In this document: positions 43,725-46,923 of the stretch, piece after piece | Layout of the letters: each line of letters opens with the position of its first letter | Position numbering within the stretch: position 1 is the first letter of the stretch | Source: an uncultured Clostridium sp. | Lineage (GTDB): Bacteria > Bacillota > Clostridia > TANB77 > CAG-508 | Assembly (NCBI GenBank): GCA_947570695.1 | Contig: CANOVB010000009.1 | Location: forward strand, 7,658-71,657 | Length of the DNA stretch: 64,000 nucleotides | Direction: 5' to 3' | Made by a program: the position numbers and the translations under genes | The notes under the pieces: generated by a model | Databases searched by the model: none | The model's input: only the letters and a program-made list of their open reading frames with translations | What the model was told of the DNA's origin: nothing

Positions 43725-44126
43725 TTAGAATCCTGATGCTACTGATATTACTATCTTCCAAATACTGTACGCTCCAAATATAACAACTGCAGATACAACT
43801 ACACCTATTAATTGGACTTTTAATTTAGCTTGTGCTTCTGGTCCTGCTGTTAAATATTTTATTCCCATGTATGTTGTTACAGCAACTAGAACACCTGCTC
43901 CAACCATTGTTAAAATTTGACCAAGCCCTTTGAATTCATCTGATATCTTTGTATAATTAATACCTTCTGCTGCTTCTGCCCCAGCATTAACAAAGTTAGA
44001 TGCTTGACCTGTCATATTTGTCAAAAGATCACTGGCTTTAACTATATATAAATTTGAACAAATTATATATATTGCCAAAACACAAAAAATTATTTTTGTA
44101 ATTACTCTAAAATTTCCTTTACACAT
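43725..44126 (-). CDS. VirB2/TrbC-pilin-like small protein, paralog 7 (most divergent; first gene of the long operon)
   Basis: 133 aa: signal-peptide-like N-terminus, variable segment, TM1, loop KYLTAGPEAQAKLK, TM2. SD GGGAGG. Confidence 0.55.
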   Translation of the reverse strand: MCKGNFRVITKIIFCVLAIYIICSNLYIVKASDLLTNMTGQASNFVNAGAEAAEGINYTKISDEFKGLGQILTMVGAGVLVAVTTYMGIKYLTAGPEAQAKLKVQLIGVVVSAVVIFGAYSIWKIVISVASGF

Positions 44127-44168
44127 ATTTTCTATCCTCCCATTTTGCCTATTTATAATATTAATTTT

Positions 44169-44197
44169 ATTATACTTAAACGTAATATTTTTTTCAA
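44169..44197 (-). promoter_or_regulatory. Consensus-like promoter ahead of paralog 7 and the long operon
   Basis: Minus strand TTGAAA, a 17-nt spacer, then TATAAT. Confidence 0.65.
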
Positions 44198-44242
44198 CAA
44201 TTTTATCGAATATTTGATATTTTTAATACAAATGTAACATAT

Positions 44243-44271
44243 AAAAAAAAGAATGATTAAAAACCATTCTT
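44243..44271 (-). terminator. Candidate terminator after pilin-like paralog 6
   Basis: Minus-strand hairpin AGAATGG...CATTCT followed by TTTTTTTTAT. Short AT-rich stem. Confidence 0.5.
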
Positions 44272-44300
44272 CTATACTCATTATTTATAATTTATTATTA

Positions 44301-44678
44301 TCAGTTTTTAAATATTCCTTCTGTTGTAAAATGTTCAACTGCAGCTATTAGATTAACTGCTCCAAATAAAAGCACACAACCTATTGCTATTGGCATAGCA
44401 CTTTTCTTTACATCAGCCTTTTCTCCAGGGCTTGCAATTATGTATTTAATACCTAACATAGTTATAACTACCAAAGAAATACCAGAACCTGCAACTTGCA
44501 TTAAACCAATTATTGTATTTAGTATTCCTCCTACTTTATCATCAGCTGCAATAGCTGTACTTGTTCCATCCATACTGGTAATTAATTGGTTTATTCCTTC
44601 ATCAGCATATGAATTATTTATTCCAATAATTGTACTTATCATTAATAAAATTATTAATATAGATACTACCTTTTTCAT
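44301..44678 (-). CDS. VirB2/TrbC-pilin-like small protein, paralog 6
   Basis: 125 aa: signal peptide (NNSYADEG), variable segment, TM1, KYIIASPGEKADVKKSA, TM2. Confidence 0.6.
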   Translation of the reverse strand: MKKVVSILIILLMISTIIGINNSYADEGINQLITSMDGTSTAIAADDKVGGILNTIIGLMQVAGSGISLVVITMLGIKYIIASPGEKADVKKSAMPIAIGCVLLFGAVNLIAAVEHFTTEGIFKN

Positions 44679-44692
44679 AGTATCACCTCACT

Positions 44693-45067
44693 TTAATCAA
44701 ATTTTATAGCTGCATCTACAAATGATTTAATTAATGATGCTATTCCAGAAGCACCAAATAAAATTAAAGCACCTATAATATAATTTATAGCATATTTTTT
44801 AATATCTGCTCTATCTCCTGCTGAGGCAATTATATATTTACAAGCAATTACTATTAATATTATAACAGCAGCAGCAACTCCAATAGTCCTAACAACTCCC
44901 AATACACTTGACAAAATTGTAATTATAGCATCTTTTCCCTCTCCTGCTTTGCTAACATCACCACCAAAGCTTTTAACAACGCTATCAGCAAAAACATTAG
45001 AAAATAATGATAATATTAGAATAATATTAAAAATTATTAAACATAATTTCATTACTTTTTTCTTCAT
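44693..45067 (-). CDS. VirB2/TrbC-pilin-like small protein, paralog 5
   Basis: 124 aa: signal peptide (NVFADS), TM1, KYIIASAGDRADIKKYA, TM2. Confidence 0.6.
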   Translation of the reverse strand: MKKKVMKLCLIIFNIILILSLFSNVFADSVVKSFGGDVSKAGEGKDAIITILSSVLGVVRTIGVAAAVIILIVIACKYIIASAGDRADIKKYAINYIIGALILFGASGIASLIKSFVDAAIKFD

Positions 45068-45093
45068 AATTCACTCCTTATTCATTATTATAG

Positions 45094-45480
45094 TTAAATG
45101 GATTCTCCTATATTTACTAATATTCCAAGTATCCATGTAACTCCAAAAAGAATTACTGCTCCAACTACATAAGCAATAGCATGTTTTTTAATATCTGCTC
45201 TATCACCTGCTGAAGAAAGCATATATCTCATAGCTATACCTAATAGCATTACAAGAGCAATGGTTACAGCTATTACTCTTATAATTCCTATAATTGTTCC
45301 AGTAGTTGTACCAATCATATTTTGTACTTGTTCAGGAGTTTTATCATCTTCAAAACCATTTTTTAAATCAACAAAACCGTTTTCTCCTGCTCCATAAACA
45401 ATAGTAGAAAAATTAGACATGATTAAAACTACTAAAATAATATTTATAATTTTAACAAGAAATTTTAAACTTTTCTTCAT
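45094..45480 (-). CDS. VirB2/TrbC-pilin-like small protein, paralog 4
   Basis: The track ORF 45094-45492 begins at a TTG. The ATG four codons downstream (MKKSLKF) has GGAG at good spacing and gives 128 aa. Loop RYMLSSAGDRADIKKHA. Confidence 0.6.
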   Translation of the reverse strand: MKKSLKFLVKIINIILVVLIMSNFSTIVYGAGENGFVDLKNGFEDDKTPEQVQNMIGTTTGTIIGIIRVIAVTIALVMLLGIAMRYMLSSAGDRADIKKHAIAYVVGAVILFGVTWILGILVNIGESI

Positions 45481-45507
45481 ACATTTCTCCAATCTATGTA
45501 TAAACTT

Positions 45508-45897
45508 CTATCCAATACCTTTAGATACTTGTTCTATTATTCCTAATATTCCTGTAACTGCAAATAATACAACAGCTCCTACTACATATACAATAGCACT
45601 TTTTTTAATATCAGCTTTTTCACCTGGTGCAGCAGACATATATTTCATAGCAAGTACTAAAAGCATAAGAACTGCTGCTGTAACTCCTACAATTCTTACT
45701 ACAGTTATAATGGTTGACATTACAGAATTAACAGTAGTTGTTGCTCCTGTCGTATCATCCCAAGTATCTGATTGAGTTAATAAACTAGACATTTCGCTAT
45801 TATAGTCTGCTTTTACAAAACTATTAATATTTAAAATTGATATAAAAACTATTGCTACTAATAAAATAACAAAGCATTTTTTTATATATTTTTTCAT
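45508..45897 (-). CDS. VirB2/TrbC-pilin-like small protein, paralog 3
   Basis: 129 aa: signal peptide (SFVKADY), TM1, KYMSAAPGEKADIKKSA, TM2. Confidence 0.6.
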   Translation of the reverse strand: MKKYIKKCFVILLVAIVFISILNINSFVKADYNSEMSSLLTQSDTWDDTTGATTTVNSVMSTIITVVRIVGVTAAVLMLLVLAMKYMSAAPGEKADIKKSAIVYVVGAVVLFAVTGILGIIEQVSKGIG

Positions 45898-45932
45898 TAA
45901 ATTTTCCTCCTACTAACTTAAGGTCTTTATGT

Positions 45933-46319
45933 TTATGATGGTTTAACTGATGATGAGAATTTTTGAATTATTCCTAAAATTCCACTAGATGCAAACATAA
46001 CTATAGCTCCTATAACATAAACAACTGCATGTTTTTTAATTGTAGCTTTATCACCTGGTGCTGATGACATATATTTAATTGCAAGTACAATTAGCATAAT
46101 AATTGCAATTCCTACACAAATTACTCTTGCAACTGTAAGTACAGAGCCTGAAATATTTGTAACTGATTCGACTACTTCTTTTCCTTCAGCTCCAACTGAT
46201 GCTCCTGCTTGATTATTAACTTCCCCCATCCAATCATAAGCAAATATACTATTTTGAAAAGCTACTAATATTAAAAGAGAAATTGCAACTACGATAAATA
46301 GTCTTTTAAATGTTTTCAT
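45933..46319 (-). CDS. VirB2/TrbC-pilin-like small protein, paralog 2
   Basis: The track ORF extends to 46358, but that ATG lies inside the promoter. AAGGAGG precedes the ATG at 46317-46319 (MKTFKRLF), giving 128 aa. Loop KYMSSAPGDKATIKKHA. Confidence 0.6.
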   Translation of the reverse strand: MKTFKRLFIVVAISLLILVAFQNSIFAYDWMGEVNNQAGASVGAEGKEVVESVTNISGSVLTVARVICVGIAIIMLIVLAIKYMSSAPGDKATIKKHAVVYVIGAIVMFASSGILGIIQKFSSSVKPS

Positions 46320-46363
46320 ATATTTTCCTCCTTTTTTCCCCAATTTAATTACTATCATAATTA

Positions 46364-46392
46364 ATTATACCATTTTTTTTATTCTTTTTCAA
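46364..46392 (-). promoter_or_regulatory. Strong consensus promoter ahead of paralogs 2-6
   Basis: Minus strand TTGAAA, a 17-nt spacer ending TGg, then TATAAT (extended -10). Confidence 0.7.
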
Positions 46393-46484
46393 TCTTACTG
46401 GTATTTTATAAACTTATATTAACCTATAAGTTTTATTTTGTAAATATTTTTTTAAAGTTTTATATTGCATTTTTAAATAAGCAC

Positions 46485-46515
46485 AAAAAAAGAATACTTC
46501 ACAGTATTCTTTTTT
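46485..46515 (-). terminator. Rho-independent terminator after paralog 1
   Basis: AAGAATACT-loop-AGTATTCTT flanked by A and T runs. It lies about 25 nt after the stop at 46537. Confidence 0.75.
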
Positions 46516-46536
46516 ACATAATTTTTAATCTTAAAA

Positions 46537-46923
46537 TTAGTCTGGTTTAACATTGCTTGCAAAGTTTTTAACAATTTGTAAGATACCACTAGCTGCAAAT
46601 AATACTACAGCACCTACTACATACACAACAGCATGTTTTTTGATGTCTGCTTTGTCTCCAGGAGCAGCTGATATGTATTTTATAGCTAATACTATTAACA
46701 TAATAATAGCTACACCTACACCAACTACTTGAACAACAGTGATAGCAGCTCCAATTATTCTATTGATACTTGATGCTGCACCTGATGTATCTGATGCATT
46801 TGCTGTAACTGTATTTGTACCAATTTCGTTAAAACTTAAAGCTCTAACATTAGTAGCTAATGCTGCTATAAGTAAAACTGCTGTTAGCAATATAACTGCA
46901 ACTTTAATTACATTTTTTGACAT
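46537..46923 (-). CDS. VirB2/TrbC-pilin-like small protein, paralog 1 (monocistronic; candidate major subunit)
   Basis: 128 aa: signal peptide (NVRALS), Thr/Ser/Ala-rich variable segment, TM1, KYISAAPGDKADIKKHA, TM2. SD AAGGAGG. Has its own promoter and terminator. Confidence 0.6.
   Translation of the reverse strand: MSKNVIKVAVILLTAVLLIAALATNVRALSFNEIGTNTVTANASDTSGAASSINRIIGAAITVVQVVGVGVAIIMLIVLAIKYISAAPGDKADIKKHAVVYVVGAVVLFAASGILQIVKNFASNVKPD

Follow-up and report, generated by a model that had tools for sequence, protein, structure and literature searches.

What do seven small genes, lying one behind the other beside the genes of a secretion machine in an uncultured Clostridium, encode, and why are there seven of them? 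The genes, here named p1 to p7, occupy positions 43725-46923 of a 64,000-nucleotide stretch of contig CANOVB010000009.1 (assembly GCA_947570695.1), which is referred to as the window and has a G+C content of about 27%. An earlier note, made from the sequence of this DNA, had taken them for tandem paralogs similar to the VirB2/TrbC pilins of type IV secretion systems (T4SSs). We consider it rather probable that the seven genes encode pilin-like subunits of the VirB2/TrbC superfamily (PF18895), that these belong to a chromosomal and clade-conserved T4SS resembling the mating-pair-formation class FATA (MPF_FATA), without a relaxase in the locus, and that they act as specialised parts which assemble together.

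The earlier note had reported seven consecutive open reading frames (ORFs) of 124-133 amino acids (aa) at these positions. The coordinates proved exact, and all seven ORFs are encoded on the minus strand:

46537..46923, minus strand: p1, 128 aa; candidate major subunit, for which a separate promoter and terminator are predicted; PF18895, 31.4 bits.
45933..46319, minus strand: p2, 128 aa; opens the predicted p2-p6 unit; PF18895, 29.2 bits; a collinear ortholog occurs in other species.
45508..45897, minus strand: p3, 129 aa; PF18895, 29.0 bits; the class motif YS.EM..LI is kept among orthologs.
45094..45480, minus strand: p4, 128 aa; PF18895, 24.7 bits (just under the gathering score); 156 bits against a hidden Markov model (HMM) of the seven paralogs.
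44693..45067, minus strand: p5, 124 aa; TrbC/VirB2 PF04956, 30.1 bits; PF18895, 28.2 bits.
44301..44678, minus strand: p6, 125 aa; closes the predicted p2-p6 unit; PF04956, 28.8 bits; PF18895, 27.9 bits.
43725..44126, minus strand: p7, 133 aa; ancestral-type copy that always adjoins prgI; PF18895, 31.6 bits; 36-aa N-segment with a conserved motif.

Each of the seven genes is preceded by an AGGAGG-like ribosome-binding site, and their products follow a common plan: a K/R-rich n-region, a hydrophobic signal peptide, an AxA-type site, a polar acidic segment (the N-segment), helix 1, a loop, helix 2 and a short tail. The architecture previously described, of a signal peptide, a variable segment and two helices joined by a basic loop, holds in p1-p7. 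The putative signal peptidase sites, assigned by a rule that combines hydropathy and the AxA pattern, are VRA|L, IFA|Y, VKA|D, VYG|A, VFA|D, SYA|D and VKA|S, and the interhelix loop, KY(I/M)xxxPG(D/E)KADIKK, bears a net charge of +2/+3. Some of the figures had to be corrected: three paralogs, not four, are exactly 128 aa long, and the variable segment measures 19-36 aa instead of 25-45 aa. That the N-segments lack similarity between paralogs was borne out (8-24% identity, against 16 +/- 6% for shuffled sequences), as was the statement that p7 (KYLTAGPEAQAKLK) is the most diverged paralog. The near-identity claimed for p1 and p2 applies to the central hairpin only, identity across the whole core being 66%. 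Pairwise, the cores of the paralogs are 26-66% identical and the proportion of synonymous differences (pS) is saturated, at 0.47-0.70; the duplicates are therefore old. The seven-paralog HMM gives each of the proteins 128-165 bits, far above chance, and found no further match among the small ORFs of the window.

The family to which these proteins belong was examined with Pfam profiles, the gathering scores being 26.6 bits for PF18895 (T4SS_pilin), 27.9 bits for PF04956 (TrbC/VirB2) and 27 for PF12666 (PrgI). Six of the seven proteins, all but p4, pass that of PF18895, and p5 and p6 pass that of PF04956. Together with the position of the genes, directly upstream of those for PrgI/VirB3-like, VirB4 and VirB6-like proteins, these matches uphold the VirB2/TrbC-like assignment. 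Weak matches to the 'Mbov_0395 pilin-like' family of a Mycoplasma integrative and conjugative element (ICE) were obtained in NCBIfam. An exhaustive profile search (E <= 1e-3) returned 5,914 representative homologs, and a word-index search 1,758 close homologs of p1, one of which is labelled 'VirB2 component (pilin)' by JGI. Pfam and the JGI label already imply this family assignment, and comparable arrays have been described before; it is the lineage that is unexpected.

The AlphaFold2 (AF2) model of p1, with a mean predicted local distance difference test score (pLDDT) of 77, consists of a signal-peptide helix, a disordered stretch (residues 31-48) and a tight hairpin (49-85 and 88-124; pLDDT about 90). 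By rule and in this model, a signal peptide, two helices, a short basic loop and a small mature size, the elements of the pilin design, are all present. The predicted mature size is 97-102 aa; classical mature VirB2-type pilins, of ~70-78 aa, are smaller. Since no significant match to solved VirB2/TraA pilins was obtained, the link to VirB2 rests on the Pfam profiles and the gene context. A bare two-helix hairpin carries too little signal for a comparison by Foldseek or by profiles against PDB to speak for or against a VirB2 fold.

A two-helix hairpin is also a simple and common design, which small membrane proteins of unrelated families, holins or bacteriocin immunity proteins for instance, could share by mimicry, and the Foldseek and PDB sequence matches, all to generic or designed hairpins, would suit that explanation. 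However, the curated thresholds of PF18895 and TrbC are passed, linkage to the VirB3, VirB4 and VirB6 genes is kept in 80 of 80 loci (see below), and there are no adjacent lysin or bacteriocin genes. A PHROGs scan for holin-like families gave no match at E <= 0.01 and thus no support for the holin or immunity alternative. The earlier note had said that membership in such a family would overturn its assignment; neither PHROGs nor Pfam points to one, and the neighbours are T4SS genes. We find mimicry by unrelated proteins hardly credible.

On the 3' side of the pilin-like genes, and on the same strand, follow genes for a PrgI/VirB3-like protein, a TrsD-like VirB4 half, VirB4, a polytopic protein of 413 aa, bitopic proteins of 392 and 511 aa, four large proteins and two small bitopic ones (TM, transmembrane):

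43375..43710, minus strand: PrgI/VirB3-like small membrane protein, 111 aa; PF12666, 25.2 bits, E 2.4e-5; in 80/80 loci.
42112..43374, minus strand: TrsD-like/VirB4 N-terminal half, 420 aa; PF26593 TraC-like (precomputed); NCBIfam VirB4_plasma N-region, E 2e-5, and TrsD, E 0.002.
40096..42090, minus strand: VirB4 ATPase, 664 aa; P-loop_TraG, 2.7e-16, AAA_10 and DUF87; NCBIfam CD1110-type VirB4, 3.8e-61.
38842..40083, minus strand: polytopic protein read as minimal VirB6-like, 413 aa; pilin-homologous hairpin at residues 164-237; NCBIfam Mbov_0396, E 2e-4.
37660..38838, minus strand: bitopic protein, 392 aa; one N-terminal TM segment; in 51/80 loci.
36094..37629, minus strand: bitopic protein, 511 aa; one N-terminal TM segment; in 52/80 loci.
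31648..36081, minus strand: protein read as extended VirB6-like, 1477 aa; shared module and hydrophilic C-terminal extension of ~1080 aa; weak NCBIfam MMCAP2_0566.
28889..31630, minus strand: protein read as extended VirB6-like, 913 aa; pilin-like hairpin at about residues 122-197; PF18895, 24.2 bits, E 3.6e-5.
25906..28857, minus strand: protein read as extended VirB6-like, 983 aa; PF18895, E 1.4e-4; MMCAP2_0566, 2.8e-6.
23218..25869, minus strand: protein read as extended VirB6-like, 883 aa; PF18895, E 7.4e-4; MMCAP2_0566, 4.8e-6.
21667..23190, minus strand: pair of bitopic proteins (174 and 324 aa), closely linked and distal in the operon; intergenic spacing 24-27 nt, ribosome-binding sites present.

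In a Walker A scan, VirB4 is the sole T4SS-type ATPase of the operon. Its split into proteins of 420 and 664 aa is the same as in related Clostridium plasmids and in published Patescibacteria systems. The 392-aa bitopic protein is a possible VirB8 analogue; neither it nor the 511-aa protein has a Pfam or PDB match, phmmer searches of the 413-, 392-, 511- and 1477-aa proteins against PDB were likewise negative, and the 174- and 324-aa proteins match no family. Pfam and NCBIfam gave no match to VirB7/9/10, VirB11 or VirD4 in the window, where the machine forms a single operon with one ATPase. A gene for an ABC-type ATPase of 233 aa (20966-21667, minus strand) abuts the 324-aa bitopic gene without a gap. 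In a homologous locus of a distant relative (L053, 17371-21366), an operon protein of 1331 aa carries GDSL hydrolase and phage-tail-lysozyme domains and is a candidate VirB1-like cell-wall hydrolase; no equivalent of these domains was detected in the window.

A module of ~330 aa with an FNINFFD motif recurs in the 413-aa protein and in all four large ones, and by BLASTP the 1477-aa protein is 34% identical to the 413-aa protein over 299 aa (E 1e-37). We read these five proteins as one minimal and four extended VirB6-like paralogs. In the AF2 model of the 413-aa protein (pLDDT 75; predicted TM score 0.69), the best natural Foldseek matches are to R388 TrwI/VirB6; this fold match is weak (probability 0.72, TM 0.42-0.45, E 0.4) and agrees with the position of the gene after virB4 and with the weak NCBIfam matches to Mycoplasma ICE proteins, which is why we favour the VirB6-like reading. 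The C-terminal extensions of the four large paralogs, of 480-1080 aa, are hydrophilic, rich in A/K/E/S and without a recognisable domain. Within the common module, a hairpin of the form YYxxRxxAxAxxLxxLIYxGIRMAISTxAxEKAxYKKMLVxW aligns to the hairpin of the pilins, with HMM domain scores of 18-31 bits; by hhalign, the pilin profile matches the 413-aa family with a probability of 84% (E 7e-6).

Further information on how such hairpins are used comes from natural fusions. The top matches of the exhaustive search carry one signal peptide followed by 3-5 hairpin units, without internal signal peptides: P0241 has five units, P0242 and P0243 have four, and P0244 has three and a coiled-coil-like tail. 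In some fused relatives, an extracellular domain of ~180 aa stands between the signal peptide and the hairpins. These larger fusions lie inside the arrays of homologous loci, with a VirB4 identity of 70-79% to the window, and two-unit fusions occur as well:

L093 801-2153 (P0241) and L091 10001-11374 (P0244): poly-pilin genes; others are P0242, P0243, P0245, P0293 and P0375.
L037 4797-5501 and L038 7553-8260: two-unit fusions in species representatives.

By Rosetta-stone logic, these fusions suggest that different hairpin units are neighbours in the working assembly, and that the N-segment is situated outside the membrane, free to serve for linkage or display. A one-to-one correspondence between p2-p6 and the units of the five-hairpin protein P0241 was considered and rejected, as the fused units show no consistent best match to p2-p6.

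The same observations bear on the main rival explanation, in which the hairpins would be membrane-embedded translocon parts, packed against the VirB6-like proteins so as to make up or line the channel, and would never polymerise outside the cell as a pilus. The homology between the pilin hairpin and a TM hairpin of the polytopic VirB6-like proteins is in line with this, as are the covalent fusions of 2-5 hairpins, which resemble ordinary polytopic membrane proteins. Most Gram-negative T4SSs need VirB2 for function whether or not they make pili (PMC12857230), and a pilus has never been seen in the classical Gram-positive T4SSs (PMC4027160). Nevertheless, the predicted layout of p1, with its own promoter, a strong ribosome-binding site and a terminator, is that of a highly expressed structural subunit. 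Both termini are predicted to be outside, where relatives add extracellular domains of ~180 aa or coiled-coil extensions, which suggests surface display; with the termini on one side of the membrane, the fusions suit adjacent positions in a filament as well. On balance, we judge a purely membrane-embedded role unlikely, although it is a serious contender against co-assembling pilin-like subunits.

How widespread the locus is was assessed in 469 confirmed relatives, which include 80 distinct species-representative genomes; the counts of loci given here refer to the latter. VirB4 orthologs 73-96% identical to that of the window occur in at least 80 species representatives. The labels of the VirB4-bearing relatives are nearly all of uncultured gut Clostridia (Ca. 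Scatovivens, CAG:354, CAG:780 and UBA lineages). VirB4 of the window is 94% identical to that of metagenome-assembled genomes of Ca. Scatovivens, a member of family CAG-508 in the order TANB77 (PMC13106387). The order pilins, PrgI, N-terminal VirB4 half (TrsD-like), C-terminal VirB4 half and VirB6-like protein is kept in 80 of 80 loci, whereas the upstream flank is not. A homologous locus is found on the closed 1.8-Mb chromosome OZ006973.1 (L053), at 127-149 kb, beside genes for a LytR-CpsA-Psr protein and a D-Ala-D-Ala carboxypeptidase.

Is the locus then the mating-pair-formation module of an ICE or plasmid, and are the seven genes those of a conjugative pilus? The nearest annotated relatives of VirB4 are encoded on large Clostridium and Bacillus plasmids (30-40% identity), and the flank upstream of the array is a variable island with TnpV and defence genes. 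On the other hand, no relaxase, coupling protein or integrase was detected in the 64-kb window; a linked set of relaxase, coupling protein and integrase or replicon is not present there, and the context is chromosomal. The operon has housekeeping genes and a lysine riboswitch on one side and the variable, TnpV-containing defence island on the other. Past the operon lie the riboswitch, an amino-acid ABC transporter, tRNA-Met, ScpB, ProRS and SMC, and it is the presence of ProRS, ScpB and SMC that places the locus on the chromosome. When the locus was compared by Megablast with plasmid and phage collections, neither near-identical DNA nor any other match turned up, so that it has no close annotated relative in them; a tblastn search of plasmids with p5 gave no match either, but so short and hydrophobic a query makes this uninformative. 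Finally, the locus occurs in at least 80 species of one clade, with a VirB4 identity that grades from 96% to 73%. A tRNA-linked ICE boundary was rejected as well, since the sole tRNA (Met, 13860-13936) is separated from the operon by the transporter and other genes and no integrase is present. For these reasons, a mobile mating module is in our opinion quite improbable.

Some features of the two flanks deserve mention. The lysine riboswitch (20640-20810, minus strand; Rfam RF00168, 109 bits) marks the chromosomal boundary just beyond the T4SS operon, and downstream of it are the genes of the amino-acid ABC transporter (SBP_bac_3, permease and ATPase; 18045-20449). Between the transporter and tRNA-Met/ScpB, an ORF of 937 aa (15132-17945, plus strand) and one of 237 aa (14081-14794, minus strand) have no Pfam or NCBIfam match. 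Upstream of the array, the defence island (47112-64000) comprises an nSTAND3 NTPase with HNH, TnpV, Fic-HTH, an RloB/AAA_21 pair, a WapI-like gene and a complete Qat system (55283-59913, minus strand: QatA KAP NTPase, 58069-59913; QatB, 57382-58065; QatC, QueC-like, 55995-57425; QatD, TatD DNase, 55283-56002). The content of this island varies between samples and species (L003-L010, positions 1-9800), and the same slot holds AbiG, OLD/UvrD, Hachiman HamA with a helicase, a retron-type reverse transcriptase or restriction-modification genes in other samples or species.

The number of pilin copies per locus ranges from one to eight: six to eight where VirB4 is at least 85% identical to that of the window, mostly three or four at 80-85%, and one to five (mode three) at 70-80%. 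In related Clostridium plasmids, with a VirB4 that is 40% identical, a single small gene stands at the pilin position; that of a C. botulinum plasmid has a sub-threshold match to PF18895, and the C. beijerinckii copy has no Pfam match. In close relatives the seven genes are collinear one-to-one orthologs of p1-p7, and in all species loci the last or only pilin copy, next to prgI, matches p7 best. Taken together, the collinear orthology and the constant p7-like neighbour of prgI indicate that the duplications predate the speciations and that p7 is the ancestral copy.

Rates of evolution were estimated as the ratio of the proportions of nonsynonymous and synonymous differences (pN/pS) between the window and nine species with a VirB4 identity of 91-96% (mean 94%). 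The hairpin cores show 60-84% identity and a pN/pS of 0.22-0.45, p1 being the most conserved ortholog (core identity 84%, pN/pS 0.22). For the N-segments identity is 30-57% and pN/pS 0.70-0.99, compared with 0.65-0.94 for the signal peptides and 0.09 for VirB4; because pS is near saturation, all these values are approximate. Saturated pS between paralogs, one-to-one orthologs and the pN/pS of the cores agree with what the earlier note had proposed, namely old duplicates under purifying selection. For the N-segments, diversifying selection was not demonstrated: their pN/pS, of 0.7-1.0, is the same as that of the signal peptides and never exceeds 1. The N-segments do not drift freely, as judged from their sequences. 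They keep class motifs (LL..M.G.A..FI..G....INY.NI..EF.G in p7, YS.EM..LI in p3 and ...DTSGAASS in p1), and each class keeps its length (standard deviation of 1-3 aa; 4.5 aa for p7) and a net acidic charge. When, within the species, the 3.7-kb array was compared with that of four other metagenome samples, a single base was found to differ (99.97% identity), while the flanks differ by up to 1.6%; this comparison is biased towards invariance, as the samples had been chosen for an identical p1.

These results allow us to weigh the proposal that the array is a repertoire for antigenic or host-range variation, with interchangeable members that are alternatively expressed, as proposed for virB2 of Anaplasma. 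In favour of it, Anaplasma uses different virB2 paralogs in tick and in mammalian cells (PMC3556328), the N-segments of the paralogs here have no detectable similarity, N-segments and whole pilins evolve far faster than VirB4 (N-segment pN/pS 0.7-1.0), copy number varies from one to eight across species, and three predicted promoters could permit differential expression. Yet the orthologs are stable, collinear and one-to-one, with class-specific motifs, lengths and charge; the array is 99.97% identical across samples whose flanks diverge by as much as 1.6%; pN/pS stays at or below 1, level with the signal peptides; and recombination or pseudogene cassettes were not found. Moreover, covalent multi-unit fusions argue for simultaneous use, and p2-p6, only 14-35 nt apart, are likely co-transcribed. 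We thus hold a variation repertoire to be improbable. The idea of antigenically different tips, put forward in the earlier note, does not fit the one-to-one orthology, the conserved N-segment classes, a pN/pS of at most 1 and the one-base difference between arrays, and its first reading, alternative or minor subunits of a surface fibre, is viable.

The preferred explanation is one of specialised subunits that assemble together, and predicted signals of transcription bear on their roles. The three best promoter-like matches on the coding strand coincide with the three long gaps, before p1, p2 and p7:

46956..46984, minus strand: predicted sigma-70-type promoter before p1; TTGATA-17-TATAAT, 11/12; consensus match only.
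46485..46515, minus strand: predicted intrinsic terminator after p1; AT-rich stem of 12-13 bp, then U7.
46364..46392, minus strand: predicted promoter before p2, with extended -10; TTGAAA-17-TATAAT with TG, 11/12.
44243..44273, minus strand: predicted intrinsic terminator after p6; stem of 11 bp, then U8.
44169..44197, minus strand: predicted promoter before p7 and the machinery genes; TTGAAA-17-TATAAT, 11/12.

Since each long gap has a promoter match and terminators are predicted behind p1 and p6, the array looks like three transcription units, p1, p2-p6 and p7 with the machinery, and co-transcription of p2-p6 is likely in view of their close spacing. Ahead of the p7-type gene, nearly all species loci have a long gap, as most loci of six to eight copies do after p1; a hairpin and a T-run, often weak, are present in most of the recurring gaps. 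On this basis, p1, with its own predicted promoter and terminator and the highest conservation, is likely to be the major subunit; p2-p6, one predicted unit, are likely minor or positional subunits; and p7, ancestral and predicted to share a transcript with the machine, probably serves as a core or base subunit.

In the assembly pathway that we envisage, each precursor would be exported by Sec and cut by signal peptidase I. The helical hairpin of 97-102 aa would remain embedded in the membrane, its two ends on the outside and its basic loop facing the cytoplasm, until it is extracted and stacked with others by the PrgI/VirB3-like protein together with the split VirB4 ATPase and the VirB6-like platform. 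The product would be a heteromeric tube or fibre across the cell wall, with the acidic N-segments on its outer face; the homologous hairpin in the VirB6-like proteins could nucleate stacking, and the paralogs would be specialised co-assembling parts rather than interchangeable variants. By analogy with what has been proposed for Patescibacteria, such a machine more likely serves contact or exchange between cells than self-transfer, because the locus has no relaxase or coupling protein and behaves as a vertically inherited core trait.

Several points weigh against this explanation. No filament has been observed, and the organisms are uncultured. Foldseek of the p1 model against PDB gave no match at E < 1 and returned generic or designed hairpins, and the seven-paralog profile matched designed TM proteins among PDB sequences and no solved VirB2/TraA pilin. 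The PrgI, TrsD and VirB6 assignments all fall under the curated cut-offs, gene order and topology being consistent with them. A cell-wall hydrolase was not identified in the window and was found only in the distant relative L053, and a relaxase or coupling protein could sit elsewhere in the genome. Multi-hairpin fusions would be just as expected of a complex wholly within the membrane, near-saturated pS makes the pN/pS values rough estimates, and the roles of p1, p2-p6 and p7 are deduced from promoter and terminator predictions and from conservation.

Which known system is closest? The classical Gram-positive T4SSs had been described in the earlier note as lacking VirB2, in agreement with the literature: a classification paper of 2014 describes the T4SSs of monoderms as being without VirB2 homologues (PMC4027160), and a nomenclature review of December 2025 says the same of Gram-positive T4SSs with Patescibacteria as the single exception, unique monoderms that possibly make conjugative-type pili (PMC12857230). 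Our full-text literature searches found no paper that ties TANB77 to a T4SS or VirB2, or that describes the system in other Firmicutes. The closest known system is that of the T4SS pilin arrays of Patescibacteria, for instance Ca. Southlakia epibionticum ML1 and Ca. Nanosynbacter lyticus TM7x (PMC12102498; PMC12857230). There, arrays of 2-11 PF18895/PF04956 pilins with a mean identity of 25% lie beside PrgI, TrsD, VirB4 and VirB6 genes, usually without a relaxase (PMC12102498), and the pilin array is essential in S. epibionticum (PMC12102498; PMC12857230). Compared by families and published description, both systems have tandem, divergent pilins of the same Pfam families (here seven, with cores 26-66% identical), accompanied by genes for PrgI/VirB3, TrsD, VirB4 and VirB6; the loci are chromosomal in either case, usually without a nearby relaxase, and belong to small genomes of uncultured or hard-to-culture organisms. 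They differ in that the host here belongs to the Clostridia (TANB77/CAG-508, about 1.8 Mb) and not to the Patescibacteria, and in the five VirB6-like paralogs, four of them with long extensions; essentiality and an epibiotic lifestyle have been shown for Patescibacteria only.

Tandem families of virB2 are also known from the Rickettsiales, and the comparison with the virB2 paralogs of Anaplasma made in the earlier note is valid (PMC3556328): Anaplasmataceae have 8-15 virB2 paralogs and four extended virB6 paralogs (PMC3556328). The rvh system of A. phagocytophilum and A. marginale (PMC3556328, PMC7648143, PMC2653234) resembles the present one in its tandem virB2 genes, with two helices and variable ends; in the signal peptides of VirB2, about 27 aa long there and present here too; in tandem virB6 genes with large hydrophilic C-terminal extensions (here five VirB6-like genes, four of them extended); and in being a chromosomal, non-conjugative T4SS of reduced genomes. 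However, the rvh hosts are diderm, with VirB7/9/10/11 and VirD4 and with split vir loci, whereas the host here is presumably monoderm and has one operon. Furthermore, virB2 is variable between strains there, with host-dependent expression, whereas the array here is nearly invariant between strains. The likeness in design is most likely convergent.

With the MPF_FATA systems (pGO1/pSK41 Trs, pIP501 Tra, pCF10 Prg, C. difficile CTn and Mycoplasma ICE), the locus has in common PrgI/TrsC-like, TrsD-like, VirB4 and VirB6-like proteins encoded in the same order. The best NCBIfam matches of VirB4 are to the CD1110 type and to that of Mycoplasma ICE, and weak matches link the pilins to Mbov_0395 and the VirB6-like proteins to Mbov_0396/MMCAP2_0566. 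In contrast, those systems are mobile, possess a relaxase, a coupling protein and a hydrolase, and are described as being without VirB2 (PMC4027160).

Within TANB77 itself, a 'conserved pilin' cluster has been linked to immunotherapy response (Kim et al., Nat Commun 2024, PMC11680825). It is likewise a clade-conserved surface-appendage cluster of this order with seven 'pilin-like' genes, but it encodes a Tad/Flp type IV filament, with CpaF/TadZ/TadB-C and with pilins that have one N-terminal helix (PMC11680825). Identity of the two was rejected: the published cluster is Tad/Flp, and the paper does not mention a T4SS or VirB2.

The pilin-array design is hereby placed in a lineage of Clostridia, in at least 80 species of a clade that is common in human and animal guts. 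This bears on the origin of the Patescibacteria system, whose authors are undecided whether its pilins came with the monoderm machine, and on whether the T4SS of a monoderm can assemble filaments of the VirB2 type across a thick wall. It bears as well on the biology of TANB77, an uncultured order tied to cancer immunotherapy response through a different, Tad-type pilin: the seven T4SS pilins and the four extended VirB6-like proteins would be further conserved antigens of the clade, probably surface-exposed. The hairpin common to pilins and VirB6-like proteins and the natural fusions provide testable hypotheses of subunit assembly. As a tentative extension, which we regard as possible although doubtful, a domesticated, relaxase-less T4SS with a heteromeric VirB2-type pilus or conduit could be a vertically inherited core organelle of the reduced-genome TANB77, homologous to the essential T4SS of epibiotic Patescibacteria. 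In that case, pilins of the VirB2 type would already have existed in monoderm MPF_FATA-like systems, with consequences for the source of the Patescibacteria machine, and the common hairpin and the poly-pilins would offer a new handle on how a VirB6 platform nucleates pilus assembly. TANB77 may then depend on contact-dependent exchange with other cells, which could help to explain its resistance to cultivation.

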